Shown piece after piece: positions 21,834 to 62,554 of a DNA stretch of 64,000 nucleotides. The stretch spans positions 66,468-130,467 of the forward strand of contig CACELO010000002.1 of assembly GCA_902560445.1 (NCBI GenBank), written 5' to 3'. A program made the translations under genes and the position numbers. The DNA is from an uncultured Candidatus Poseidoniales archaeon (GTDB lineage Archaea > Thermoplasmatota > Poseidoniia > Poseidoniales > Thalassarchaeaceae). The notes under the pieces are model-generated. The model was not told the DNA's origin and made no database searches. It saw nothing but the letters and a program-made list of their open reading frames with translations. Position 1 is the stretch's first letter. Each line of letters opens with the position of its first letter.

Positions 21834-22721
21834 TCAATTTCGAGTCCAAGATGGAATGAATACATCTCTCCAATTCGGAGTTGCAAGATATTCTTCCTCG
21901 GTAAAGAATGACCTTGCATAAATCGAAATAAAGTCGATAATTAGAACAACAATGTAGATAATAATCAGGTATGCAAATACCTTGTCATATTGTAAAAATC
22001 TAAGATACAGATCGATGTAATATCCAATTCCTCCTGCACCGACAATGCCGATTACAGTACCAGAACGGAAATTATATTCAAACATGAATATCGAGTGAGA
22101 AATTAGATCATTTGCGGCTTCAGGAATAACTACGTTAACTGCTACTTCCCAACGACTCAAGCCTATTGCATTCGCCGCATCCAAAGGAGTTTTTGTCAGA
22201 CCCTCAATTGATTCATACTGTAATTTTCCAAGATATCCCACTGTGTAAATTGTCATTGCCAGAACGCCAGCTAATGGACCTAAGCCGACTAGAATAACCA
22301 AGAAAATAGCCCAAATCAATGCTGGAAGACTCCTACATGCTGAGATAAGAAAGCGGGTAGGGTAAGATATCCATCGCGGGCTTAAATTTCTTGAAGCCAT
22401 GATTGACAAAGGTAATGTTACAACCATACCAAATACAGTTGCAACAAACGCAATCTTTAGCGTCTCAATAACTCCCTTCCAAGCGGTTGAGCAAGTGAAA
22501 TCGAAAATTGGTTGGGCAGTACAAACAGGATATGTTTGAGGCTCTAGAACGCTCATATCTGGTGGCCAAAGAGACTGAAAGAAGAATCTGACAAGATTAT
22601 CTGGGCCACCTGCTAATCTACCCCAGTCGCCAACCATTCCGTTTAGAATTACAATTGCAAGCAAAAGGAGAATCCATAGCACCAGAGCCATCTTTTCGCC
22701 ATCTACTGCTATCTTCTTCAT
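21834..22721 (-). CDS. ABC importer permease, PhnE family
   Basis: 295 aa, 6 TM. It has the binding-protein-dependent transport motif region 'IEGLTKTPLDAANAIGLSRWEVAVNVVIPEA' and a 4-nt overlap with the ATPase gene. Confidence 0.8.
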   Translation of the reverse strand: MKKIAVDGEKMALVLWILLLLAIVILNGMVGDWGRLAGGPDNLVRFFFQSLWPPDMSVLEPQTYPVCTAQPIFDFTCSTAWKGVIETLKIAFVATVFGMVVTLPLSIMASRNLSPRWISYPTRFLISACRSLPALIWAIFLVILVGLGPLAGVLAMTIYTVGYLGKLQYESIEGLTKTPLDAANAIGLSRWEVAVNVVIPEAANDLISHSIFMFEYNFRSGTVIGIVGAGGIGYYIDLYLRFLQYDKVFAYLIIIYIVVLIIDFISIYARSFFTEEEYLATPNWRDVFIPSWTRN

Positions 22722-23428
22722 GAATTCAACACCACAGCTTTTGGTTTGGTAATGAATGGATTCACTCTTCCATCATCAATAACTAGGAGGCGATTTGCCA
22801 TTGACTTGGCTCTAGAAATATCATGCTCGACAACGATTAATGCTGAATTATTATCTTTCACGTAGCTTGTCACGCTTTCCAAAACCATAGCCAATGTTTC
22901 TTCGTCTAATTCACTCAAAAATTCATCTGCTAGAATTAATCTTGGTCGCTGAGCCAATGTTCTGGCCGTTGCGACTCTTCTCTGTTGGCCACCGGACAAC
23001 CTCCTAATTGGTTCTCTTGACTTTTCCTTAAGCCCCATTTGTTGAATTGCATTGGTAACTCGTTCCTTTCTTTCCTTCCTATCATTAGTTCCAGCTCGAG
23101 CACCCAACATTACATTGTGCCTAACACTTGCATGACGAACTAAACCCAATTTTTGTGGAATATACCCTAGTGCGCCACGGAGAGGTTTCGACGGAATTTC
23201 TGCACCACACACTGTGATCGAACCGGAAATTGGACGTATTAGTCCCGCAATTGTACCAAGTAAAGTTGACTTCCCGATACCAGAAGGGCCCGCTATGGCC
23301 ACTATTTCACCAGGGAATATTTCGAGATTGGGAATACTGACTAAGGGTGATTCAGTTTCATATCCGATTACTATATCTTCGAGGGAGACAATCGGATTTT
23401 CTGAACCCATACCCTCGGACAACTCCAA
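22718..23428 (-). CDS. ABC importer ATP-binding protein, PhnC family
   Basis: Walker A 'GPSGIGKST', signature 'LSGGQQRRVATART', Walker B 'ILADEFLSELD'. Confidence 0.85.
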   Translation of the reverse strand: MELSEGMGSENPIVSLEDIVIGYETESPLVSIPNLEIFPGEIVAIAGPSGIGKSTLLGTIAGLIRPISGSITVCGAEIPSKPLRGALGYIPQKLGLVRHASVRHNVMLGARAGTNDRKERKERVTNAIQQMGLKEKSREPIRRLSGGQQRRVATARTLAQRPRLILADEFLSELDEETLAMVLESVTSYVKDNNSALIVVEHDISRAKSMANRLLVIDDGRVNPFITKPKAVVLNS

Positions 23429-23441
23429 AGCCCCCTTGTAA

Positions 23442-23457
23442 TTTAGGCGGCCCTAAA
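23442..23457. promoter_or_regulatory. 16-bp palindrome TTTAGGCGGCCCTAAA (copy 1 of 4); candidate operator
   Basis: An inverted repeat 14 nt 5' of the phnC-like ATG. ATATAT (23461-23466) lies just upstream on the transcribed strand. Confidence 0.55.
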
Positions 23458-23514
23458 CCAATATATGGTATTGATGGGTTTAGTGATAACAAAATATCTT
23501 ACGAATCAGATAAC

Positions 23515-25611
23515 TTATATCGATTCTTGCAAGAATGAATAGGCTCCGGGTACAACACTTACCACCTCAGATAGCAAGCCAAGATGTTCTTGTGAATTTG
23601 TTCTAACAATCCCTGTACCATCGAGTATATTGTTTAGAATTTCATCACCACAGATTTCCCTATTATTATCTGAATTTACCTTGTGTGTAGAAATATCGTA
23701 ACAACCAGTATATGTTCCAAATCCGGGTCTAGAATAATTCTCTAGATACATCTGATAATTCAAAGTAACTAAGGCGTTGAGAATAGCGGCTCTACTTCTA
23801 GAATCAAGAGTCGAAGGGTTGTACATTACAGATTCACTTGGAGACACACCGACTTGACCCAAAGATAGGTACTGGTCAATTTCCATGCACCAATCTTGAT
23901 TTTCTTGTTCTTCTTGATTACAATTTTCTTCTAGTGCATCTTCTCCGACGAATGCTATTTCACTTACATTTTCGGATAGGCAGCTAATCGCACCTACCTC
24001 TCCCGCAGGGGTGCTTGAAGATGAAAGAAGAGATGATTGATTTCCAAAATAGCCGCGTATTGTTTCGATAATCTCGACATTTTCTTGATTAGGCGAATAA
24101 TACTCATTTTCAATTAGATAATGAATAGGAAGAATTGTGTGAATTGGAGATTGAGAACCGGTGAAGCAAGACACTCTTCCCTGCATCATTGCAAATGGAT
24201 CGGTGCTAGATTCATTGTCTGAACTTGCGGTAGCCAATTCTCCTAAATTTGAGACTAAGGCCATAGAATACCGCTGAGTCAATTGATCTTTGTTTTGTAT
24301 GGCTCCTAGAACTGATAGATTATGTAATTTCCATCCAATTAACGAAGAAGATGAAGGAAGAAATCCAATATGAGCCTCGCCTGTTTCAATTGATTCAATC
24401 ATTTCTGATTGAGAATTAACATAGTGAATTGAAACATTAATTCCTAATTCTATGGATAAAAATTCGGCTAAATGAATCGGGTCACTATTGGTTTCTAATT
24501 TTGATTCATCTAGTTCAAATGCAACAATTAATTCTTCTATTGTTATTGTTATTGATTGACTTCCATTGTCGGTATAATAAGCTGAAATCCCAGGGATATT
24601 CGAAACCAGAGGCGTGTATATACCAAGATGAGATTCAGAATCTGTAGAAACTACACCCTTTGTCCCTAGTGTGTTGTAGAGAATTTCGCTGTAATCCTCG
24701 TTTGAACTAAAGTCAATTAGAAAATCCGTAAGTTCACTGATTACTAAATCATCATCAAAATTAGAATGAGTCATGAAAACATCACTGGGGGTCTTAGCGA
24801 ATGGTTCGAGAGAAACATATCTCGAGGCATCCAAACACCATTCTTCGACATTATTTCCATTTTCTGTGGTGCAGTATTGAGAGGCCGTGTTATCCTTCGC
24901 AAATGCAACCTCACCGGAACCATCTGAAAGACATCTTAGAGCCCCTGAAAATCCATAGTACTGTGTGCCAGGTTCCGGAATTGATGAGTTTTCGTTAAAG
25001 AATTGAAAAATTGTATTTCTTAGAGATTCGATATCATTTGGATCGCCAATTACATTTGCATACCCCAATCCAAGGAAGAATCCCATTGGAACCATCATTC
25101 CTGTTGAGTGTAACCAACCCGTATGGCAGGAAGTTTTGCCTTGCATCAGTGAGAATGGATTTGTTAGCGGATCATCGTCAAAATATGCTTCTGCGATATC
25201 GCTATCGTCGAGAACCCAAGCGAGAGAATTGTAGTATGTCCTGCCGTCTGATTTTTGGTCCGCTGCAAAAGCCTGCAAACCGTATTGATTCCACCCAATC
25301 CAAGCAGCACCGCTATCCATTAGAGCGATGTCGGCATTTCCAAACCTTAGTGCCTCGAGTATCGCTGCTTCTGAATCAACGGCATATATTGTAAAATCAA
25401 ATCTACTGTTTTGGGTAAGAATTTCTGCCAGCATCTCAGGATTAGTTTCTGACTCAAGCATACCTTCGGACACTTCGAATGCCAGAACAATGGGAGTTCT
25501 TGTTTGATTATTTGATTCTTCAGAATCACTCAAGCAACCAGAGAGAGTGCTAGAAAGCAGGATAATGGTATAACAAATGACCAGTATTTTGTAATGTCTT
25601 TTTGTCGGCAT
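23515..25611 (-). CDS. bilobal transferrin-like/PhnD-superfamily substrate-binding lipoprotein (two tandem PBP-type lobes)
   Basis: Lipobox 'STLSGCLSD'. Lobe 1 (about aa 40-345) and lobe 2 (about aa 350-698) are paralogous to each other and to the 28476..29546 protein. Lobe 1 carries 'TSCHTGWLHSTGMMVPMG' and 'YYGFSGALRCLSDGSGEVAFAKD'. Confidence 0.8.
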   Translation of the reverse strand: MPTKRHYKILVICYTIILLSSTLSGCLSDSEESNNQTRTPIVLAFEVSEGMLESETNPEMLAEILTQNSRFDFTIYAVDSEAAILEALRFGNADIALMDSGAAWIGWNQYGLQAFAADQKSDGRTYYNSLAWVLDDSDIAEAYFDDDPLTNPFSLMQGKTSCHTGWLHSTGMMVPMGFFLGLGYANVIGDPNDIESLRNTIFQFFNENSSIPEPGTQYYGFSGALRCLSDGSGEVAFAKDNTASQYCTTENGNNVEEWCLDASRYVSLEPFAKTPSDVFMTHSNFDDDLVISELTDFLIDFSSNEDYSEILYNTLGTKGVVSTDSESHLGIYTPLVSNIPGISAYYTDNGSQSITITIEELIVAFELDESKLETNSDPIHLAEFLSIELGINVSIHYVNSQSEMIESIETGEAHIGFLPSSSSLIGWKLHNLSVLGAIQNKDQLTQRYSMALVSNLGELATASSDNESSTDPFAMMQGRVSCFTGSQSPIHTILPIHYLIENEYYSPNQENVEIIETIRGYFGNQSSLLSSSSTPAGEVGAISCLSENVSEIAFVGEDALEENCNQEEQENQDWCMEIDQYLSLGQVGVSPSESVMYNPSTLDSRSRAAILNALVTLNYQMYLENYSRPGFGTYTGCYDISTHKVNSDNNREICGDEILNNILDGTGIVRTNSQEHLGLLSEVVSVVPGAYSFLQESI

Positions 25612-25908
25612 TGATCAAAACCTCTGTCTACCCGACTCTTGCTCAGGATGCTGATTTTTCAATGTTAGTCCTGAAGGAAATAACATAATTTTCAGTTTAA
25701 TCCTGGTGTTGACAGGGGAACCTGTGATGTGTACAGATGCTCCTATGTGACGCTGTTAGAGTCCCCCGTGCCAACGGGTATTGCCAATGCTATTGGCTAA
25801 GGTTGTTGACAGGGGGCCTATTGCGTTCGAATACGAAATTCGAATGTAGGTGTCAGGCGCTGATACGCCCCCTGCCAACTGTTTTGTCTTATCGACTGGT
25901 TACGTACT

Positions 25909-27144
25909 TCATTGGAGAGTTCCAATGTCTTCGGCTGTGATGCCAAATGCATCCCAGACTGGCTGTAGATAGGAGCGGATATCCGCTTCGTAATCTGCTG
26001 TTGCATCTCCATCATTCTTCAGATCGAAGATTTCGAGAATCTTGTCATTGTAGTAATTAGCATACCACCCAAATGCCTCGCACTCCTCCTCTGACATACC
26101 CTCATGCTGAGCGTGTGTCACTGAATTATAGCATCCTGTGAATTCCTCTCCACTCGGATCGTTTGGAGAAGTGTAGTTCTCCAGATACATGTATGCCTCG
26201 CAGGATGCCTGTGAGCTATCCGATGAGACCGTGTGAGATACCATGTTGTAGCAGATCGAAGTGTACTCAGCGACATATGCCTCGATTACCCTGTAGAAGG
26301 CGTGACCCTCTGCCTGGTGCTTGTCGTAGTCTGCAGTATCTCCAGCAGCTAGGTCGTCCGTCATCTTTGATGCGTACCTCACAGAAGCCTGTGAGTAGAC
26401 GATTACAATATTCTTCAGAACCTCGTCGCGTGCGTCGACTACTCCTTGCATATCTTCATTCTGAAGTGCAGTCAAGCCAGCGTTCATTGCGGCTAGAGTA
26501 GCGATGTTTGTAGCATCACCAGTCCCAAAGTTGCCCCCTCTCTTGGCAGCGGTTGCATATGGCCCACATCCATCGTAATCATGGTTGGAATCGTCAGGAC
26601 CATGGTAGAAAGCCCATCCTTCGTCCCAAGCGTGTTGAGCGTCATCGGCCCCCCAGTTTCCTGCTTCCGCCTTGATGATTGCAGCGTTGAGTTCATGGAT
26701 TGCATAAGCAGTCATCACACCATTCTGGATTCCCTTTTCGACTGCTTGATCTCTGACTGTGTCAGATTCTCCCTCGAAAGGACCTGTGCCATCAATAGCC
26801 GCAGATACGAAGTCATTCCATGAGCCGTCTGCATCATAGTATGCGTCGTAGGCGTGGTTCTTGCCGGAAGCATCTGCGAAGCCCATGAGGGTCCTGTAGG
26901 AACCGTCGGACTTCTCCGCGTGCTTTCCATCATCATAGATATCCTTCACACCGTCCCAATCGTATGCACCAGAGAGGTCCTTAATATCGCAGACATCACC
27001 CATTAACATTCGGTGATTATCAACGTTGGAAGCATACGTGTATCCTCCATCTGCGTCATCAAGATCTACATCATCTCCTGCACAACCGGCAATCGCACTG
27101 CCGATTAATACTAAAGTCATCATTAAAGTCATTGTTCTATTCAT
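25909..27144 (-). CDS. acidic lipoprotein of unknown function (mostly helical, Cys-pair modules near the C-terminus)
   Basis: Signal/lipobox 'LIGSAIAGCAGDD'. 411 aa. Two operator-like palindromes lie directly 5' of the gene. Confidence 0.7.
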   Translation of the reverse strand: MNRTMTLMMTLVLIGSAIAGCAGDDVDLDDADGGYTYASNVDNHRMLMGDVCDIKDLSGAYDWDGVKDIYDDGKHAEKSDGSYRTLMGFADASGKNHAYDAYYDADGSWNDFVSAAIDGTGPFEGESDTVRDQAVEKGIQNGVMTAYAIHELNAAIIKAEAGNWGADDAQHAWDEGWAFYHGPDDSNHDYDGCGPYATAAKRGGNFGTGDATNIATLAAMNAGLTALQNEDMQGVVDARDEVLKNIVIVYSQASVRYASKMTDDLAAGDTADYDKHQAEGHAFYRVIEAYVAEYTSICYNMVSHTVSSDSSQASCEAYMYLENYTSPNDPSGEEFTGCYNSVTHAQHEGMSEEECEAFGWYANYYNDKILEIFDLKNDGDATADYEADIRSYLQPVWDAFGITAEDIGTLQ

Positions 27145-27146
27145 AG

Positions 27147-27162
27147 TTTAGGTCTCCCTAAA
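27147..27162. promoter_or_regulatory. 16-bp palindrome TTTAGGTCTCCCTAAA (copy 2 of 4); candidate operator
   Basis: Begins 2 nt 5' of the ATG (27144) of the 411-aa lipoprotein gene. Confidence 0.55.
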
Positions 27163-27190
27163 CCGGCCGGATAGCGAATCGTATATGAAA

Positions 27191-27206
27191 TTTAGGGCGC
27201 CCTAAA
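27191..27206. promoter_or_regulatory. 16-bp perfect palindrome TTTAGGGCGCCCTAAA (copy 3 of 4); candidate operator
   Basis: Lies in the divergent intergenic region 27145-27299 and abuts the A/T-rich 'GTATATGAAA' (27181-27190). Confidence 0.55.
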
Positions 27207-27299
27207 CTCTTGAATCGTGCGTGGAAAATTGTCATATAACTGATGAGCAGTCAATTGAATTGGAGACGAGGTTTTTTTACTCATTTCTATTCGTAAATA

Positions 27300-27905
27300 T
27301 TGGTTTTAGTTACAAGGAGAGGATTAGTCTTGAGGAATTTGGGGCATAGATTGGGGGCTTCTGGTACCAAAATGGAAAATACCATTGACGGGCTTATGAA
27401 TTCATTAGAACAGGTAAATAATAGAAAATTTAAGTATTGGGAATTTGATATTAGAGAATCTTTGGATGGAATAATTTTTGTCTTTCATGATGATCAAATA
27501 CTTGTAGATGGAGAATTAATCGAAACCGCCAAATTGAATTTCTCTGAAATAATGAAAGCGGGTGAGGATTTGGGGGTAAAGATACCTACATTTTCAGAAG
27601 TTGTTGAAATATTGGGTGACCGGAAAGAAGATGTCATGGTTGAAGTGAAAGAATTGAGAACTGATGCCGCTAGAAGAACCGTAATCACTGCGATTTCTAG
27701 TAAACCAAATTGGAAACTGATGGCTACTCCAACTAGATTCTTGGAATCTTTTCCTAGTGAATCCAGGGAGTATTGGGAGCGATTTACTCGAGATTTGGAC
27801 GTAGAATTCGTTAGAGTTGGCCGCCATAAATTGGACCTTTTCAGCGCTTCTAAATCCTATTTTAGGTGGAAATTTGCTCGATTTAAATGGTTTTTCGGGA
27901 TTTAA
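27300..27905 (+). CDS. glycerophosphodiester phosphodiesterase (GDPD)-like protein
   Basis: 'LGHRLGASGTKMENTIDG...YWEFDIRESLDGIIFVFHDD' matches the GDPD N-terminal HR..EN...E.D...DG..V..HD pattern. It is short (201 aa). Confidence 0.6.
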   Translation: MVLVTRRGLVLRNLGHRLGASGTKMENTIDGLMNSLEQVNNRKFKYWEFDIRESLDGIIFVFHDDQILVDGELIETAKLNFSEIMKAGEDLGVKIPTFSEVVEILGDRKEDVMVEVKELRTDAARRTVITAISSKPNWKLMATPTRFLESFPSESREYWERFTRDLDVEFVRVGRHKLDLFSASKSYFRWKFARFKWFFGI

Positions 27906-27968
27906 TAATGATGACTATTTTGAATTAATTTTTCCTACAATTGATTATGAACCCCATTACTCACCCTA

Positions 27969-28403
27969 ATGTTGAAGAAAATGGTCAGTACTGATGAGTT
28001 AATTGTGGCGCTAAATAATGCTCTCGCTTGGGAATTAAGGGCTATTGCAATGTATGCTCACTATTCCGCATACGTTTCAGGGATTCATAGATTACAACTT
28101 TCGGTATTCTTCAATAATGAAGTAACAGAATCAATTGCGCATGCTTCAACCGTAAGATCCGCTATAGTGAAATTACACGGTAAGGCCACTACGGAGAGGG
28201 CAGAAGACCCTATTTTACACTCAATGGACTTCCGAGATATGTTGGAAGAGGCACACAAAACTGAGTTGAAAGCTAGCGAGACATATGGAGAAATTTTACC
28301 AATGGTTGAGCAAATTGGGGATAGCGAACTTTTTGATGCCCTGGAAGTTATTTACTTTGATGAACTGAGATCTGTAGAAGAATTGAGAATGATGCTTGGT
28401 TGA
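27969..28403 (+). CDS. ferritin-like four-helix-bundle protein (bacterioferritin/Dps-like superfamily)
   Basis: 144 aa. 'ALNNALAWELRAIAMYAHYS', 'EVTESIAHASTVRSAIVKLHG', 'LEEAHKTELKA' and 'FDELRSVEE' resemble the E / E..H / E / E..H di-iron pattern. The spacing of the first E..H is one residue off. Confidence 0.55.
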   Translation: MLKKMVSTDELIVALNNALAWELRAIAMYAHYSAYVSGIHRLQLSVFFNNEVTESIAHASTVRSAIVKLHGKATTERAEDPILHSMDFRDMLEEAHKTELKASETYGEILPMVEQIGDSELFDALEVIYFDELRSVEELRMMLG

Positions 28404-28429
28404 GATTTAAACATACTATTTACCGTTAG

Positions 28430-28445
28430 TTTAGGGTGCCCTAAA
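28430..28445. promoter_or_regulatory. 16-bp palindrome TTTAGGGTGCCCTAAA (copy 4 of 4); candidate operator
   Basis: 31 nt 5' of the ATG at 28476. TTTAAA (28406-28411) lies upstream. Confidence 0.55.
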
Positions 28446-28475
28446 CATTATCAAACAAACCGATTTCGGAGATGT

Positions 28476-29546
28476 ATGGAAAAAACTAGTTGGGCTGGTT
28501 GGGCCAAAGCTAACAAAGCACTTTTGCTCGCTGGATTAGTGCTATCTGCGACCGTATTGTATCTCATTTTCGACATTAATTACGAACAATGTGATGATCA
28601 AGATAACTGTATTACAATCGCTTTTGAGGTACAAGATGACTATTTGTATTTTGGAAAAGAGAACCCTCAGCACTTGGCAGACAAAATGAGTGCTCTGACT
28701 GGTATGGATGTTGAAATAATGCCTGTATCGAATTCCGGCGCGATAATCGAGGCTATCAATAATGGCAATGCGGATATTGGATTTGTAGATGGAGCGGCCG
28801 CTTGGCTTGCATGGGAAGTTTACGATTTGGACGTGCTAGCGGCAGAGTGGAAATTTGATCAAAGGACGTACTATAATGCGGCAGCCTGGGTGAAAAAGGA
28901 CTCTGAAATTGCAGACGCGTATCTAGATGATGATCCAGATACAGACCCATTTGCTTTAATGAATGGAAAAACGTCTTGCCATACAGGATGGCTGAAAAGT
29001 GCTGGGATGTTGATTCCAATGGGTTACTTGATTGGAAATGGGTATGCCGAGGTGCGTGGAGATCCTGAAGAAATTACTTCACTACGAGATACAGTGACGC
29101 ATTTCTTCAACGAAGATTCAAGCATACCTGACGGAGGTACTCAATATTCCGGATATAAGGGGGCATTGAAGTGTATGATGACTGATCGCGGAGACGTTGC
29201 TTTAGTCAAGGATACAGCATATATGCTCTACTGTGACGAAAATGAGGACGGAATTGCAGATGGTCCTGATTGGTGTTTGGATAGAGATGAGCTCGTTATG
29301 CTCGAGTCATTTGGTCGAGCACCGAGTCACCCCGCTTTGTATAATCCCTCAGCTATGAATAACGAAACGGTCGAACTAATTCAAAATGCATTGGTGGATA
29401 TGAATAATGATGAAGAAGGTACAAAGATACTCTCCGATGTCTTAAACACTGAAGGAATGGTTGTTACGAATGCTACTGCTCACCTAGGCACATATGGTGC
29501 GGCTGTAGAGAACGTCCCTGGAATACAAGCATTTTTTGAGGATTGA
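28476..29546 (+). CDS. monolobal transferrin-like substrate-binding protein (PhnD superfamily) with N-terminal membrane anchor/signal
   Basis: Motifs 'NADIGFVDGAAAW', 'RTYYNAAAWVKKDS', 'GKTSCHTGWLKSAGMLIPMG', 'YSGYKGALKCMMTDRGDVALVKD' and 'APSHPAL' align with transferrin N-lobe ligand and anion-site motifs (recalled from the human serotransferrin sequence). Confidence 0.8.
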   Translation: MEKTSWAGWAKANKALLLAGLVLSATVLYLIFDINYEQCDDQDNCITIAFEVQDDYLYFGKENPQHLADKMSALTGMDVEIMPVSNSGAIIEAINNGNADIGFVDGAAAWLAWEVYDLDVLAAEWKFDQRTYYNAAAWVKKDSEIADAYLDDDPDTDPFALMNGKTSCHTGWLKSAGMLIPMGYLIGNGYAEVRGDPEEITSLRDTVTHFFNEDSSIPDGGTQYSGYKGALKCMMTDRGDVALVKDTAYMLYCDENEDGIADGPDWCLDRDELVMLESFGRAPSHPALYNPSAMNNETVELIQNALVDMNNDEEGTKILSDVLNTEGMVVTNATAHLGTYGAAVENVPGIQAFFED

Positions 29547-29592
29547 TCACACAATCCCAACTAGCGTACTGCCACAACGTTGAGGTTTCATA

Positions 29593-30798
29593 ATGAGAGT
29601 GACCATCACTATCCTAATTTTATTGATAATATCTCTATTTTCTGGATGTTTTTCAGACGATGGAGATGATTTTGATTGGACTGATCCCCAAACAACAGAG
29701 TGCAATTTAGGCAATAACCTAACTTGTACTAATTTGTTTCCGGGAGCTGGTACTCCTCATCACTCAGAAGTAAATCCTCAAACTAATGAATTATGGATAA
29801 TTTATCTCAGTGGAATGGTAAAAATTTGGCAAGATGATGAACTAATACAAGCTGGTGACTTAAGTGAAATTGTAAATAGATGCCATACAGAACAAGGATT
29901 GCTTGGATTTGCATTCGATGCCAACTATAATTCTTCCAAACAACTATTGTTATCATATGTGGAAAAAGGCAGCTGCGAAGGGGCGAATAATGCAGACCTC
30001 GTTCTTGCTTCAGTTGTTGTTACTGATGATGATATGATAAATTTGGACTCGTTAATCGTCTTGAAAACCGTAGAACAACCATACAGGAATCATAACGGGG
30101 GGCATTTACATGGTTTGGGTAATGGAGAATACCTCTGGGGAATTGGAGACGGAGGTGGAGCTAACGACCCAGAAAAGAATGGGCAGAATTCTGAAAATTT
30201 ATTGGGCACTATTGTTTACTTCCAATACTCAAATGGCGATGTTAATCCGATAATGGATTCAGAAAATGGAAACCCCTACATCTTGCACTATGGTTTGCGA
30301 AATCCATGGAAATTCGACGTGGGCCCTAATGAGGAACTATGGATTGCTGATGTCGGACAAAATTGTTGGGAAGAAATTAATTTGGTAAATTTGGTAAACA
30401 AATCAAACCTTGGGTGGTCAGAAAAAGAAGGATTCAGTGATTTTTCCGAAGGTGGAAGTTGTGAAGGAGGAGTTCTATCTGAAAATAATGAATTTACAGA
30501 CCCTGTCTTTGTCTATGGTCACAATAACGGAAATTGTTCCATAACCGGTGGCTTTTGGACTGAGAATACAATAATCTCAGACCAAGGTGGTTATCTGTTT
30601 GGAGACTTTTGTTCTGGTTCGCTATGGATTCTTTCCAATGGTGTAAATCACACATGGAAAGAGACCTATCTTGGTAACGTGGGGGGACTAATTGTAGGGT
30701 TTGGAGAAGGGGCTAATGGTGAGCTTCTGGTCTTTTTCTGGACTGGAGAAATCATACAAATCACTCAATCCGCTGCCGCCGATAGCAATATCGTGTGA
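29593..30798 (+). CDS. beta-propeller lipoprotein, PQQ-dependent glucose/sorbosone dehydrogenase-like
   Basis: Lipobox 'ISLFSGCFSDD'. 'EQGLLGFAFD', 'YRNHNGGHL', 'GDGGGANDP', 'YGLRNPWKFD' and 'ADVGQNCWEEIN' match the GSDH-family pattern. Confidence 0.7.
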   Translation: MRVTITILILLIISLFSGCFSDDGDDFDWTDPQTTECNLGNNLTCTNLFPGAGTPHHSEVNPQTNELWIIYLSGMVKIWQDDELIQAGDLSEIVNRCHTEQGLLGFAFDANYNSSKQLLLSYVEKGSCEGANNADLVLASVVVTDDDMINLDSLIVLKTVEQPYRNHNGGHLHGLGNGEYLWGIGDGGGANDPEKNGQNSENLLGTIVYFQYSNGDVNPIMDSENGNPYILHYGLRNPWKFDVGPNEELWIADVGQNCWEEINLVNLVNKSNLGWSEKEGFSDFSEGGSCEGGVLSENNEFTDPVFVYGHNNGNCSITGGFWTENTIISDQGGYLFGDFCSGSLWILSNGVNHTWKETYLGNVGGLIVGFGEGANGELLVFFWTGEIIQITQSAAADSNIV

Positions 30799-30817
30799 TA
30801 CCTGCTCCAGTATTGTG

Positions 30818-32815
30818 ATGAGACGCCAAGGCGCGCTTAGAATCGTGGTCATGATTACGATTATTGGAATGATGATTTCTTCGTTACAAATCGGCTACCA
30901 ACAAGGTGGTCTTGATGAATCTCAAGACAGAAGAGAACAGCTCGGCCCTGATGAGCCTACACTGGAGGAGCGATGTAGCGTCCTTACTTTCGAGGATATG
31001 TTTGAGTATACTAAAGCAGTATTCAATTTCACTATTGCCAATGATTGGAGTTCTGCCGAAATTGAAGCAGTTGCTTGGGTAAATGGGACTTTGGCAGATG
31101 ATGTAAGACAGAGTTTAGATGAATATATTGCACAAATCTACCCAAGTGGCGATGATGGCTGGATTTCTACCGATGAAAGGGAGGGAGTCAGAGCTATTGC
31201 TTCGGAGTGTGTTCAATACACGTTTACTAGAATGGGTATGCGTGATGGAAGTCCTCACAGAGGAGGTGACGGTACCGATTGGAAAAACACATCTTGGAAC
31301 GAAGACGAGGTCCTAGTAGAAGAATGGAATCTAGTCCCTCCTCGACATTCGGAATCGAGAGAATGTTCAGGGATTGGTAGTGGTAGCGATTGCTACGAGG
31401 TTCCGGTATATCCGGATAGTGAACGAGATTGCGACACCGAGGTAGATTCATCGAGCAGTCAAGATGAATGTAGAATGAAGTTATGGCTAAATGCTACCAT
31501 GATAATCTCCGAGATAAATGATCCAAGTGACTTCACAATAGCCTATAATGCCTCAAACATGAGTGGGGCTGAATATCATATCAAATTCCCCGTAACCGAA
31601 GGACTCCGACTAGATATGTGGGAGGAATGTGAAGGACGAGACGTGCAAGTGGATATGGGTGATTTTGCTGGTGTGGCTCCTCTGAGAGGTAGTTGTATTG
31701 GTGACGGTTCTAGCAGCTATGAACTTAATGAAAACGAAGATGGAAGTCTAACTTACTCCTTCTATCCCAACATGCCTCAGTGGCCTGTAGGAGAGGACCT
31801 GTTTGCCGACTTTACAACTGCACCAATCCCAGTGGACGACCCTCCTGTCTGGACTGATAGCGCACCGACAGATGGAGCCTGGTTCCCTCGTGCGAGTGGG
31901 GGGGCACAGATTATCGCGGACTGGAATGAAGTTCAAAATTGGTTCAATGATGAGGCTGGAGTATCGAACCTTGAGATGAATTGTAGAGGTGATGCAGGAT
32001 TAGTAATTACCTACTCACAACGAGAGTTGTCGATGGATGTACCAAGAGGTCAGGCAGGAGAGGTCACCTGTGAAGCAATCGACAGTTCTGGCCAATCCTC
32101 AGGAAATAGAACTTGGAATGTAGGAGTTCCATTCCAAATTTCAACTACAGATACTGAACTATCAGACCCACATCCGATTACTCTCTCTCCAACCGCTGGC
32201 TGGCCTGATCTATCTGTAGAACTCGGATTTTCCTCAAGCTTCGAAGAGGCAGGAACATATTACGGCCCATATTCAATCCAAGGCTCGGAAATAACTCAAG
32301 ATATTGCTGTGGTGGGACTTGTCCCCGGTCCAGTATATGTCGCTGTAATAGTAACCGGAGAAGGAGTTTATAGTTTGCAAGCGACTTATGATTTGGGGAT
32401 TCAAAAGGCCAGCAGTCCTCCAATAATGACAGTCACCACCGAAGGGTGGGATGGTAATTCATGGTCAATGAGTGGTCAATTCTCCGACCCCGATGGTGAA
32501 ACGATTAGTTTCAGCCTGATGATTGATGGGGCCTCAGTTGGAAGTATTACGGTCAGTGGCAATATGTGGTCTACACCTGCGATTGATTTCTCAGTATGGA
32601 CAGAAGGTTCACATATTGTTGAGGTTCAAGCCTGTGATGAGTCTGGCCTATGTTCAAGTCAGCAACGTAGCGTTGACAATACTCATTTGTTCGTTGATCC
32701 TGAACCTGAACCTGAACCACCGAAGGATAACTCTTCGGTTCTTCCCTCAATGGGATTGGCCGGTCTGATTCTTGCGGCATCTGCCGCACTCATATACTCG
32801 GGCCGACGCGACTGA
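30818..32815 (+). CDS. secreted acidic surface protein with Ig-like C-terminal domain and PGF-CTERM-like tail
   Basis: ORF track 30701..32815. I start at ATG 30818 (MRRQGALRIVVMITIIGMMISSLQ signal/anchor), which removes the overlap with the upstream gene. The C-terminus is 'LPSMGLAGLILAASAALIYSGRRD'. Confidence 0.7.
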   Translation: MRRQGALRIVVMITIIGMMISSLQIGYQQGGLDESQDRREQLGPDEPTLEERCSVLTFEDMFEYTKAVFNFTIANDWSSAEIEAVAWVNGTLADDVRQSLDEYIAQIYPSGDDGWISTDEREGVRAIASECVQYTFTRMGMRDGSPHRGGDGTDWKNTSWNEDEVLVEEWNLVPPRHSESRECSGIGSGSDCYEVPVYPDSERDCDTEVDSSSSQDECRMKLWLNATMIISEINDPSDFTIAYNASNMSGAEYHIKFPVTEGLRLDMWEECEGRDVQVDMGDFAGVAPLRGSCIGDGSSSYELNENEDGSLTYSFYPNMPQWPVGEDLFADFTTAPIPVDDPPVWTDSAPTDGAWFPRASGGAQIIADWNEVQNWFNDEAGVSNLEMNCRGDAGLVITYSQRELSMDVPRGQAGEVTCEAIDSSGQSSGNRTWNVGVPFQISTTDTELSDPHPITLSPTAGWPDLSVELGFSSSFEEAGTYYGPYSIQGSEITQDIAVVGLVPGPVYVAVIVTGEGVYSLQATYDLGIQKASSPPIMTVTTEGWDGNSWSMSGQFSDPDGETISFSLMIDGASVGSITVSGNMWSTPAIDFSVWTEGSHIVEVQACDESGLCSSQQRSVDNTHLFVDPEPEPEPPKDNSSVLPSMGLAGLILAASAALIYSGRRD

Positions 32816-32819
32816 GTTC

Positions 32820-33569
32820 GTGAGCTTCTCAGGCACCGTGGACAGAGAGTCGCATGAAGGGGGCCTCCTCGTTTCCTTTGAGGGACGTGCGCCGAGACTT
32901 GGGGCTACTTTACGAATAATCGGTGGAAAGCCGATTGGTAAGGTTAATTCAGTAATTGGAGCGATTGATGGGGCGTTTGTTCACATTCATCCAATTACAG
33001 ATCAAATAGAAGTCACAAGCACAATCGGCTCTCCGGTTGAAATCGCTCCAAGAGAGAAAAAAGAGTATCGTGGTCGTGGAAGAGATAGTTACTCGAAAAG
33101 AAATTCTCGCCGTGATAGGCGACATGGTGGGAATAATGACAGAAAAGGCGGAGATTGGACTTGTCCAAAGTGTAACAATTCTAATTTTGCCTTTCGAAAG
33201 AAGTGTAATCGCTGTGAAGCAGATAGGCCTCGAGATGGAGGAAGGAAATTCGAAAGAAAATTTGAACGAGGTGGTAACAATAAGCAAAAAGGAGGTGATT
33301 GGACTTGCCCTAAGTGCAACAACTCTAACTTCGCCTTCAGAGATAAATGCAATCGCTGTGATGCTAGTCGACCTAGCTCAGGTGGCAAGGCCCCCTCGAG
33401 AAGTAGATCCAACCAAAACCGAGGTCCTAGGCCTCAACGAGGCCCATCTGGACGAGGGCGAGGGCGAGCCCCGGGGAGCGCAAGTAAACCACGAAGATCT
33501 GGATTCAGAGGAACTGGCCGAGGTGGTCCTAGAGGTAATCGACCAGGAAGAGGTAGCGGTAGGCGCTGA
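32820..33569 (+). CDS. gar1: H/ACA RNP protein Gar1 fused to two RanBP2-type zinc fingers and an Arg/Gly-rich (RGG) tail
   Basis: The Gar1-like core 'GLLVSFEGRAPRLGATLRIIGGKPIGKVNSVIGAIDGAFVHIHP' has the same pattern as archaeal Gar1. Two copies of 'W-T-C-P-K-C-N-N-S-N-F-A-F-R-x-K-C-N-R-C' fit W-x-C-x2-C-x3-N-x6-C-x2-C exactly. The start is placed at GTG 32820, just after the upstream stop. Confidence 0.7.
   Translation: MSFSGTVDRESHEGGLLVSFEGRAPRLGATLRIIGGKPIGKVNSVIGAIDGAFVHIHPITDQIEVTSTIGSPVEIAPREKKEYRGRGRDSYSKRNSRRDRRHGGNNDRKGGDWTCPKCNNSNFAFRKKCNRCEADRPRDGGRKFERKFERGGNNKQKGGDWTCPKCNNSNFAFRDKCNRCDASRPSSGGKAPSRSRSNQNRGPRPQRGPSGRGRGRAPGSASKPRRSGFRGTGRGGPRGNRPGRGSGRR
33156..33359 (+). repeat. 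tandem duplication encoding the two RanBP2-type zinc fingers
   Basis: 33156-33215 and 33300-33359 encode near-identical 20-aa Cys4 units with flanking GGxxK(G)GDW context. Confidence 0.8.
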
Positions 33570-43167: not shown

Positions 43168-45852
43168 TCAAGTATCTGCCAAATTGCGCAAAACGGCCTG
43201 AAGGATTCCGCCATTTCGGTAATAGTCGACCTCAACAGGCGTATCTAGTCTCACGACTGCATCGAATTCGATAACCTCTCCACTTTCCTTCGTCGCTTTG
43301 ACAGTTATGGAGGATAGCGGAATTAGGTCAGCTGTAGCAGGAATATCAAAAGTCTCAGTTCCATCAAGGCCGATAGAATCTGCGTTATCTCCCTCTGGGA
43401 AGGTCAATGGAAGCACACCCATACCAACTAGATTGGAACGATGAATTCGCTCAAAGGAGGTCGCAATTACTGCCTTCACCCCAAGGAGATAGGTGCCTTT
43501 GGCAGCCCAGTCTCTGCTACTACCTGTGCCATACTGAGTACCCGCTAAGACTACCAGAGGCGTTCCTTCAGCTTGGTATCTCATGCTTGCATCGAATACC
43601 GAGACTACTTCATCGGTTGGGAAATGAGTAGTGAATCCACCTTCGGTCCCGTAAGCTATATCATTACGAATTCGAACATTAGCAAAAGTTCCTCTCATCA
43701 TCACTTCATGGTTACCTCGGCGGCTCCCAAAGGAATTGAAATCTCGAGGTTCTACACCCTTTGAAATGAGGTATTGACCAGCTGGCCCATGGTGAGGGAA
43801 AGCGCCGGCGGGACTAATGTGATCTGTGGTTACAGAATCTCCTAACTTGAGCAGAACTTTAGCTCCGTGAATAGGTTCTATTGGAGCAGGTTCAGGGAGA
43901 ATTCCTTCAAAGAAAGACGGGAGACGAACATAAGTTGATTCATTTGCCCAAGGATATAGAGCGGATTCAGAACTACTAATTGCGTCCCATCGAGGTTCCT
44001 TTAGAACATCTGAGTAGCGTCTTCGGAACATTTCAGGACCAATTGAATTAGCTATAGTTTGCTTTATCTCGTCATCACTCGGCCATATGTCGGATAGCAT
44101 AACTGGACCATTTGGGCCGTTACCAACCGGGTCTGTCTCAAAATCGACATCTAGTGTTCCAGCGATTGCATAAGCAACTACCAGAGGGGGGCTTGCGAGA
44201 TAATTTGCTTTGACCTTCTGGTGTATTCTTCCCTCGAAATTTCGATTTCCTGAAAGTACACTTCCAACAATCAAATCCGCCTCATCAATTGCTGCTTCAA
44301 TATCAGCGTCCAGGGGTCCAGAATTTCCAATACAGGTTGTGCAACCATATCCTACGACACTGAAACCAAGTGAATCTAGATCCTCAGTAAGTCCAGCCGC
44401 ATCAAAATACTCAGTGACTACTCGAGAACCAGGCGCTAGGCTCGGTTTTACACTTGGTGCAATTGTTAAGCCCGCTTGTCTGGCTTTTCTTGCCAGTAAA
44501 CCAGCAGCAATCATTACACTTGGATTACTGGTGTTGGTGCAACTCGTAATAGCGGCGATTACGATATCACCGTGTTTCAGGTCAACCCCTCTAGAGCCAA
44601 TTTTAGCAGAGGAATCATTCTTACTTTCATGAATGCCATGTCCGCTATGTCCAATAGGTGCATTTAGACTTGTTTTCCAATGGTTTTTCATATCTGAAAG
44701 ATCGACCCTATCCTGAGGCCTTTTGGGACCAGCCAATGCGGGTTCTACGGTCGATAAATCGAGCGATAGGTTGCTTGTAAAGGACGGTGTAGGAGTTTCG
44801 GATGTATGGAACATTCCTTGAGCTGAGAGATAGCGTTTAACATCCTCAATATGAGACTCTTCTCTGCCAGAAAGTCGCATGTAATCTAACGTGGTTTCAT
44901 CGACTGGAAAGAATCCACATGTTGCTCCATATTCAGGAGCCATGTTGGCAATTGTTGCCCTATCGGGAAGACTTAGATTTGCGAGCCCAGAACCATGGAA
45001 TTCTACAAACTTACCAACCACACCATGTGCCCTCAGCATCTCTACTATTCTTAGTGTCATATCGGTGGCTGTGACTCCAGGTCTGAGAGAGCCTGTTAAC
45101 TCAAAACCACAAACTTCGGGAAGAAGCATGTAAATTGGCTGACCTAGCATTACCGCCTCAGCCTCAATTCCACCGACTCCCCAACCTAAAACTCCGAGCC
45201 CGTTGATCATGGTTGTGTGACTATCAGTACCAACTAGAGTATCGGGTAACCAAACGCCATTTTCACCTCTAGCTACGCTAGCAATCCACTCCAGGTTTAC
45301 CTGATGAACAATCCCCCTTCCGGGAGGTACTGCACGAAAATTATCCAAACTTTCCTGACCCCATTTAAGGAATTCATAGCGCTCCATATTTCGTTGGTAT
45401 TCAATCTCCAAATTTCTCTCTCTTGCATCTAAGAATAATCCGGATACATCAACCTGAACAGAATGATCGATTACCAAATCGACTGGGACTTGTGGATTTA
45501 CTTTCTCAGGATCTCCACCCAACTCTACCATTGCGTCCCTTAGGGCAGCAATATCAACAACAGCAGGCACTCCTGTGAAGTCCTGTAAAATTACACGACT
45601 TGGTGAGAATGGAATTTCTTCAGGAGTCATTGTAGGCGACCAAGATGCGATGCGTTCAACATCTTCACGAGTAATGAGGAAACCATCGCACTTTCGCAAC
45701 GCGGCTTCCAACAATAATCGAATTGTAAAGGGAAGAGAATCAAGGTCACAGAGACCTAATTCTTGCAGATGATAAAGTGAGTGAAAGTCGGCTTCAGTAC
45801 CGTCAGATTTGGCAAATGATCTCACAGAATCAAAGCCTACTGAATCCATCAT
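43168..45852 (-). CDS. acnA: aconitate hydratase A (AcnA/IRP type)
   Basis: 894 aa. '[13 protein letters not shown]', '[13 protein letters not shown]', '[10 protein letters not shown]' and '[10 protein letters not shown]' are the Fe-S ligand Cys motifs. Confidence 0.95.
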
Positions 45853-45944
45853 CCCAATACCTCTTGATTTATTGGGTTAGGGAACCCTCCATCAATGTGA
45901 CTATTGGAAGCATATTCCATATGATAGCCAAGGTTATGGTAATA

Positions 45945-62480: not shown

Positions 62481-62554
62481 ATTCAGGAAATCCTCAAACG
62501 CCTGCCCGTCTGTTCGACGACCGTGGTACGCGTCAAGTGGCCGGAGGGTCGAGA

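Follow-up and report, generated by a model that had tools for sequence, protein, structure and literature searches.

Four palindromes at the promoters of an iron-related locus

The 64-kb window (the whole stretch of 64,000 nucleotides analysed here) is archaeal, encoding an archaeal type II 3-dehydroquinate synthase and the RNA polymerase subunit Rpb6/K, and it contains a locus of iron-related genes whose promoters carry copies of a palindrome, TTTAGG-N4-CCTAAA. The Fea1 gene of this locus is 100% identical to that of JAKUOA010000001.1, a contig of a metagenome-assembled genome (MAG) of Candidatus Thalassarchaeum (Marine Group IIb, order Poseidoniales). An exact pattern search with TTTAGGNNNNCCTAAA found the palindrome four times in the window, always in intergenic DNA. 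A first-pass annotation of this DNA, made from the letters alone, had given the same four coordinates, and its statement that the window holds no further full copies was also borne out by the search. The four copies, treated here as candidate operators, are:

23442-23457, O1, TTTAGGCGGCCCTAAA: exact match at the internal promoter of the ATP-binding cassette (ABC) ATPase and permease genes
27147-27162, O2, TTTAGGTCTCCCTAAA: exact match, proximal "site B" of the Fea1 promoter
27191-27206, O3, TTTAGGGCGCCCTAAA: exact match, distal "site A" of the Fea1 promoter
28430-28445, O4, TTTAGGGTGCCCTAAA: exact match at the promoter of the monolobal transferrin-like binding protein

Among 100 dinucleotide-preserving shuffles of the window none reached four copies, and the mean number of matches per shuffle was 0.00. 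Copies with one mismatch were absent from the window, while the single copy with two mismatches, at 62482, lies within a coding region and is at chance level. Copies with three mismatches (e.g. at 45876, upstream of aconitase) were rejected as real sites, as their number equals the shuffle expectation. As had been claimed, all four exact copies are close to gene starts, at 2 to 93 nt from the starts of mechanically called open reading frames (ORFs). O2 is 2 nt from the ATG of the Fea1-like gene (27144), O4 30 nt from the ATG of the monolobal binding protein (28476) and O3 93 nt from the TTG of the GDPD-like gene (27300). The distance of O1 is 13 nt to the TTG at 23428 of the mechanical ATPase frame, or 31 nt to the ATG at 23410 of public gene calls, which is likely the true start.

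The genes of the locus, with their Pfam matches and putative operators, are:

21834-22721, minus strand: ABC permease, PhnE-like (BPD_transp_1, 6e-16), putative target of O1
22718-23428, minus strand: ABC ATPase, PhnC-like (ABC_tran, 1.5e-31; also in public gene calls), putative target of O1
23515-25611, minus strand: bilobal transferrin/PhnD-family binding protein, 698 amino acids (aa) (Phosphonate-bd, 3.6e-24, and Transferrin, 1.7e-20, two stretches each)
25909-27144, minus strand: Fea1-family (low-iron-inducible, phytotransferrin-like) lipoprotein, 411 aa (Fea1, 3.2e-19), putative target of O2 and O3
27300 or 27330 to 27905, plus strand: GDPD-like gene (GDPD, 4e-07, a weak match)
27969-28403, plus strand: ferritin-like/Dps gene (Ferritin, 1.1e-15)
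28476-29546, plus strand: monolobal protein, apparent transferrin homologue, 356 aa (Transferrin and Phosphonate-bd)
29593-30798, plus strand: GSDH-like gene (by Pfam)
30701-32815, plus strand: large secreted Ig-domain protein (by Pfam)
32772-33569, plus strand: RanBP-type Zn-ribbon protein (by Pfam)

We regard this gene content as iron-related because of the Fea1, Transferrin and Ferritin matches and because of the transferrin relatives of the monolobal protein, which among solved structures is closest in sequence to ovotransferrin and lactoferrin (E 3e-20). With these two proteins it has in common the blocks GKTSCHTG, YSGY.GA..C, a DG motif and Y..A.A.VKK, and the position of the transferrin histidine ligand appears to be an aspartate (VKD vs. 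VKH). Both the one-lobed and the two-lobed binding protein look like true transferrin homologues. For the Fea1-like lipoprotein, named "FEA1-related lipoprotein [Candidatus Thalassarchaeum sp.]" by NCBI, no solved relative was found by sequence.

The four plus-strand genes from 28476 to 33569 form a probable operon under O4, and the GDPD-like and Dps genes (27300-28403) are probably one transcript that starts just downstream of O3. The bilobal binding-protein gene lacks an operator of its own; it is probably either co-transcribed with Fea1 or served by a separate promoter.

Conservation across Poseidoniales and geometry of the promoters

Species-representative genomes were scanned with the Fea1-like protein, which gave 73 loci (1.09 Mb in total, 41-100% protein identity), almost all of them titled as MAGs of Poseidoniales or of unclassified Euryarchaeota/Methanobacteriota. 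These loci contained 154-157 copies of the exact pattern, compared with an analytic expectation of ~0.07 and none in shuffled sequences. By a crude ORF call ~144 of the copies were intergenic, and the remainder fell in the 5' ends of over-extended ORFs. Copies with one mismatch numbered only 24, nearly all of them at orthologous promoter positions.

Conservation upstream of orthologous genes was a check that the first-pass annotation had named beforehand, and its outcome was clear. In a homology-anchored test, restricted to the 68 loci with an intact Fea1 5' region and to a window from −150 to +30 of the Fea1 start, an exact site was present in 68/68, among them every one of the 27 loci with a Fea1 identity of just 41-64%, and a second site (site B) was found in 49 of them. 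When sites with at most one mismatch were counted upstream of each gene family, they preceded 66/69 Fea1 orthologues, 38/47 ATPase orthologues and 32/45 orthologues of the large secreted protein; the latter gene in many other genomes has its own site, divergent from Fea1. All 26 orthologues of the one-lobed binding protein had an exact site upstream. Conversely, sites were missing before the flanking housekeeping orthologues (G3P dehydrogenase 0/25, adenosylhomocysteine (AdoHcy) hydrolase 0/23, TPR protein 0/30) and before the orthologues internal to the operons (permease 0/45, GSDH 0/29, zinc ribbon 0/37, two-lobed protein 0/30). The other concern raised beforehand, that the motif might be a generic repeat or equally frequent within genes, can be set aside on these counts, as the motif has no copies in coding regions or at neighbouring promoters. 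Where the binding-protein and ATPase genes are divergent neighbours (loci L023, L034 and L061) they have one site in common, and the association of site and gene thus survives gene rearrangement. The palindrome is kept across the whole order Poseidoniales, beyond this locus and this genome.

In the alignment of the sites the half-sites are nearly invariant, the 4-nt spacer is variable and the flanks carry 0-0.4 bits. Such variation is expected of a palindrome bound by protein, and the centres of the half-sites are separated by 10 bp, one helical turn.

Across Poseidoniales the Fea1-family lipoprotein is kept at 41-100% identity and is always preceded by the palindrome. In L035 (3668-6034) the palindrome also precedes a 773-aa fusion of an M28 peptidase and a ZIP metal transporter, and in L015 (8793-9911) and L027 (8793-9818) it lies between Fea1 and a divergent ferrochelatase gene; both neighbours widen the putative regulon. 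Two contigs with other taxonomic titles, L025 (PARX01000028.1, "Rhodobacteraceae bacterium") and L036 (DEAP01000005.1, "Dehalococcoidia bacterium"), carry the locus with its palindromes as well (Fea1 identity 79% and 73%, respectively), which is probably binning contamination in public MAGs.

In every promoter class a conserved A/T-rich, TATA-like element abuts the site. In the window these elements are:

23461-23466, minus strand: ATATAT of the ATPase promoter, kept across ATPase promoters of 31 distinct sequences
27181-27190, no strand assigned: GTATATGAAA (TTTCATATAC on the minus strand), common element between O2 and O3
28446-28455, plus strand: CATTATCAAA, conserved, directly 3' of O4 and ~27 nt before the ATG at 28476

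Of the three TATA-like neighbours proposed in the first-pass annotation, the elements at 23461-23466 and 27181-27190 are kept in orthologues, while TTTAAA at 28406-28411 is not and was probably a wrong assignment. The ATPase promoters have the conserved layout cCatAtAt.gG, followed by 3 nt and the site. Just upstream of the TATA-like element of this promoter the block ggtattgatgg (23467-23477; CCATCAATACC on the gene strand) is kept in many species, and it may be a B recognition element (BRE), an extended promoter element or a second binding site. Fea1 promoters are ordered as site A, TATA-like element, 17-19 nt, site B and start codon. In Poseidoniaceae-like loci 34 bp separate A from B, in Thalassarchaeaceae 43-45 bp, and the window has 44 bp. 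The A/T element directly abutting site A is kept in the Fea1, Big9 and GDPD promoter classes, and in the window the element at 27181-27190 probably serves both divergent transcripts. The promoters of the monolobal gene have the consensus site, then TtTtat, then an ATG ~30 nt after the site, which suggests a leaderless or near-leaderless mRNA.

In archaea the transcription start usually lies ~26 nt from the centre of the TATA element, and the starts considered here are predictions that assume this distance rather than mapped positions. With this distance O1 is predicted to be flanked by the TATA-like element and the start of the minus-strand transcript, and O2 to cover the Fea1 transcription start. 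O3 would cover the BRE position of the Fea1 promoter; on the side of the divergent GDPD/Dps transcript it would occupy the interval between TATA and start, whereas O4 would cover the BRE position of its own promoter.

Known operators and candidate regulators

TroR of Haloferax volcanii is a DtxR-family regulator whose motif, from chromatin immunoprecipitation sequencing, is TTTAGGC-NNN-CCTAAAANAN, with tandem copies ~30 bp apart that were shown in reporter assays to confer iron-dependent repression (Martinez-Pastor et al., NAR 2023, PMC10783522). At the siderophore promoter either of the two copies is enough for repression that depends on iron, and a troR mutant no longer represses this promoter (PMC10783522). 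In the structures of IdeR a single CCTAA repeat is read per monomer, with repeats 1 and 3 belonging to the same dimer; sites for a single dimer are bound in vitro, and TTAGGNNNNCCTAA was proposed as the redefined one-dimer consensus (PMC8464063). This consensus of the iron box, with inverted CCTAA repeats 4 bp apart, fits all four sites in the window and the 154-157 sites in the related loci. All 12 specified positions of the Poseidoniales palindrome and its spacing are equal to those of the TroR motif, and its 10-base core equals the one-dimer IdeR consensus. The first-pass annotation had noted the likeness to the ends of the DtxR/IdeR box and held that the spacing differs; this was wrong, as one IdeR dimer reads CCTAA repeats with the same separation.

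Applied to 49 kb of the H. volcanii plasmid pHV3, the pattern from the window found three exact sites and one with a single mismatch, where 0.11 were expected. The siderophore operon and the binding-protein gene of an iron ABC transporter have these sites upstream, at TroR target promoters, and the promoter of the binding-protein gene reads GTTAGGCTCGCCTAAA, 20 nt with TTTTAA, TTTAGGGAGGCCTAAA, 4 nt and ATG. The TroR box and the Poseidoniales box thus have half-sites and spacing (TTTAGG-N4-CCTAAA) and iron-uptake targets in common, and the layout of the Fea1 promoters is the same, in that tandem sites 34-44 bp apart enclose the TATA element and the copy nearer to the gene lies a few nt from its start codon. 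The differences are in the setting. TroR belongs to haloarchaea and our sites to uncultured mesophilic marine Thermoplasmatota, a different phylum-level lineage; its targets include siderophore synthesis, those here Fea1-like and transferrin-like proteins. The Poseidoniales half-sites are also far less degenerate (157 exact vs. 24 one-mismatch copies), and Dps is in an activated position in Haloferax and apparently in a repressed one here.

The iron box of Actinobacteria (TTAGGTTAGSCTAACCTAA) also has one CCTAA pentamer per monomer, and a single IdeR/DtxR dimer reads TTAGG-N4-CCTAA. The classical box, however, is made of two overlapping dimer sites on opposite faces of the DNA and works with the sigma-70 machinery, whereas the boxes here are paired 34-44 bp apart and belong to archaeal TBP/TFB promoters. 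Spacer positions 7-10 and the 3' flank of our sites show no TTAG/CCTAA constraint, so that the classical 19-bp two-dimer box is absent and, with no second pentamer pair, each box would hold one dimer. The one-dimer TTAGG-N4-CCTAA recognition code of the DtxR family is found in Actinobacteria, in haloarchaea and now in Thermoplasmatota.

Among archaeal regulators, MDR1 of Archaeoglobus fulgidus, which Bell et al. are said to have described in 1999, is reportedly a DtxR homologue and metal-dependent repressor that blocks recruitment of RNA polymerase from operators overlapping the transcription start, downstream of TATA. It would thus be a DtxR-family repressor at a core promoter, as proposed here, but MDR1 is said to regulate its own ABC-transporter operon, whereas the regulator of the present locus appears to be unlinked. 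The Fur box, another iron-responsive operator at iron-uptake promoters, has the 19-bp consensus GATAATGATAATCATTATC, to which our palindrome has no sequence resemblance.

Two further leads were discarded. A bioRxiv text appeared to assign DtxR to Marine Group II, but the NAR version has "formerly Crenarchaea" at that place. Viral contigs were scanned as well, and their 72 matches to TTTAGGGNNCCCTAAA are at or below a rough chance estimate; none of these contigs encodes proteins of the iron locus or DtxR.

The regulator was searched for by Pfam scans of the window, covering the frame at 29593-30798 and those ORFs of a greedy, non-overlapping call that are 80 aa or longer. These scans found no regulator or transcription-factor gene in the 64 kb, in line with the earlier statement that none is visible there. 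Searches of the window and all loci by tblastn, with sequences of Corynebacterium diphtheriae DtxR, Escherichia coli Fur and Bacillus subtilis MntR, gave nothing below E=0.7. The proteins of the ORFs at the edges of the window, looked up by exact match in order to reach DNA beyond it, had no entry on record. The unannotated ORFs next to the sites were rejected as regulators, being ferrochelatase, DUF3592, a ZIP-M28 fusion and DUF454 by Pfam, none of them order-wide. Haloarchaeal plasmid matches were likewise discarded as an archaeal DtxR query, as they are long SirR/MntR-like proteins beside copper or manganese genes.

In a few genomes small proteins of 75-90 aa, in two families, are encoded divergently from Fea1 at 70-190 nt from the box:

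L034, 9545-9805: small protein divergent from Fea1
L036, 204-476: small protein divergent from Fea1
L061, 9617-9862: small protein divergent from Fea1
L040, 9528-9758: small protein divergent from Fea1
L041, 5854-6081: small protein divergent from Fea1

They match no Pfam family and are not kept across the order; they might be small DNA-binding proteins.

A putative iron-starvation regulon and its alternatives

Judged from these comparisons, the palindromes are likely the operators of a TroR-like, DtxR-family repressor that is loaded with iron and blocks the core promoter. The first-pass annotation had proposed a dimeric, metal-related factor that occludes the archaeal core promoter, and this is supported by the comparative data and by the match to experimentally defined operators. 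Starting from the observed motif, its conservation and promoter specificity, the TATA geometry and the operator identity, we infer the family of the regulator, iron as its effector and repression as the sign of its action. In the proposed mechanism a single homodimeric winged-helix metal sensor, encoded elsewhere in the genome, would read all four palindromes with one CCTAA(A) half-site per monomer, and would play in Poseidoniales the part that TroR has in haloarchaea and IdeR in Actinobacteria. When iron is sufficient the Fe2+-loaded dimer would bind the operators and exclude TFB/TBP or RNA polymerase from the four promoters, turning the locus off; we propose exclusion because every operator abuts a TATA-like element or covers a predicted start. 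The genes affected would be those of the Fea1-like lipoprotein, the two transferrin-family proteins and the ABC ATPase and permease, and here also that of Dps/ferritin. At low iron the apo-protein would leave the DNA and the locus would be expressed. At the Fea1 promoter the two operators, 44 bp apart, would flank a single TATA element used by both divergent transcripts.

Several points weigh against this explanation. Neither the 64-kb window nor the 73 loci yielded a gene for a DtxR-family protein or for any other regulator, and gene content alone is the ground for naming iron as the effector in place of Mn or Zn. The Dps gene lies behind an operator in a repressing position, the opposite of the logic in Haloferax, where TroR activates dpsA (PMC10783522). 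The proximal site of Poseidoniaceae-like genomes has a conserved TTTCGG half, and IdeR no longer binds in vitro when all four repeats carry the equivalent T-to-G change (PMC8464063). Recognition may therefore differ in detail from that of IdeR. Finally, sites directly 5' of TATA (O4, and O3 relative to Fea1) could in principle activate instead. Such a role for the same regulator, mainly as an activator or in both directions, with sites just 5' of TATA that recruit TFB/TBP, would fit the position of O4 and of site A relative to Fea1, directly upstream of a TATA-like element, and the activation of dpsA by TroR. We nevertheless find it quite unlikely, as these sites end 0-2 nt from TATA, leave no room for a BRE and so overlap the region contacted by TFB, while the operators of the ATPase, the large protein and Fea1 site B lie between TATA and start, the classic repressing position. 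The repression of the Haloferax siderophore promoter by either tandem site alone speaks against activation as well.

The failure to find a DtxR gene, and the small proteins divergent from Fea1 in some genomes, would also suit real operators that are read by another family (Fur, ArsR/SmtB, TrmB, Lrp or an unknown archaeal winged helix-turn-helix protein) and have converged on this palindrome. This is unlikely in view of the identity with the TroR motif and the IdeR core, and since the motif is found throughout the order and the small neighbours only in a few genomes. The sites could also act in RNA, as a hairpin in the 5' untranslated region similar to an iron-responsive element and bound by a protein such as apo-aconitase, given that site B and O4 may be partly transcribed, that the sequence can form a 6-bp stem and that the window has an aconitase gene (43168-45852). 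The conservation pattern makes this highly improbable: the stems are invariant and the loop variable, the opposite of what is seen in RNA structures, and compensatory changes number 0 among the 24 one-mismatch and 2 intergenic two-mismatch variants. In addition, site A is upstream of the TATA element for Fea1, and an Rfam scan of the window found two tRNAs only and no match at the sites. The chance that we are looking at a generic promoter element or a dispersed repeat with no specific regulatory role is next to negligible. The CCTAAA half beside TATA does resemble an A-rich BRE, but there are only four sites in 64 kb with ~45 genes, none precedes the housekeeping neighbours in 73 genomes, and the flanks are not kept as they would be in a mobile repeat.

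A TroR-like repressor at these promoters would have consequences for how the locus is understood. In the surface oceans Marine Group II archaea rank with the most abundant microbes, and to our knowledge they have never been cultured. The literature that we searched holds nothing on iron sensing or acquisition in Marine Group II, and none of it links the group to DtxR, Fea1 or transferrin. A genomic survey lists "transport of phosphonates" as a core trait of Marine Group II (PMC6336850), and the PhnC/PhnE-like ABC pair under the iron box (21834-23428, minus strand) may be what this trait refers to. If the trait is indeed the PhnCDE-type system seen here, the transferrin-family binding proteins and the control by an iron box argue for iron uptake, and there are grounds to re-read as an iron importer an ABC system that is usually annotated as a phosphonate transporter. 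We put forward, tentatively and with slightly less than even confidence, that the most abundant planktonic archaea possess an unrecognised iron-starvation regulon, in which transferrin homologues and a Fea1/phytotransferrin-like lipoprotein feed a PhnCDE-type importer and "phosphonate transport" is carbonate-type ferric-iron uptake under a TroR-like repressor.

If this holds, prokaryotic relatives of the eukaryotic transferrins and of the phytotransferrins are found together in one regulated locus. The presence of a one-lobed and a two-lobed form in the same archaeal locus may be of relevance to how transferrins arose. An operator that is kept order-wide allows iron-responsive genes to be listed from sequence in any Marine Group II genome or metagenome, and the Fea1-like and transferrin-like genes are candidate iron-stress marker transcripts for ocean metatranscriptomes. 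The operator class and the regulatory mechanism are already known; new are the lineage and the regulon, and the value lies in regulon and organism rather than in a new mechanism.

Three further features of the window were observed. The Zn-ribbon protein (32772-33569, plus strand) has two RanBP2-type repeats (Pfam 2.7e-19), a domain mostly known from eukaryotes, and it is kept downstream of the large Ig-domain protein throughout the loci. The Fea1-like and two-lobed genes are separated by a 297-nt spacer (25612-25908) with two copies of CCCCTGTCAACA and other G/C-rich repeats; this spacer contains no iron box, and it may encode a small RNA or serve as a processing site or a second promoter. The chance-level copy at 45876-45891 (GTTAGGGAACCCTCCA) lies 24 nt upstream of the aconitase start and has one good half-site with three mismatches in total; aconitase being an Fe-S enzyme, this could be a weak one-sided site.

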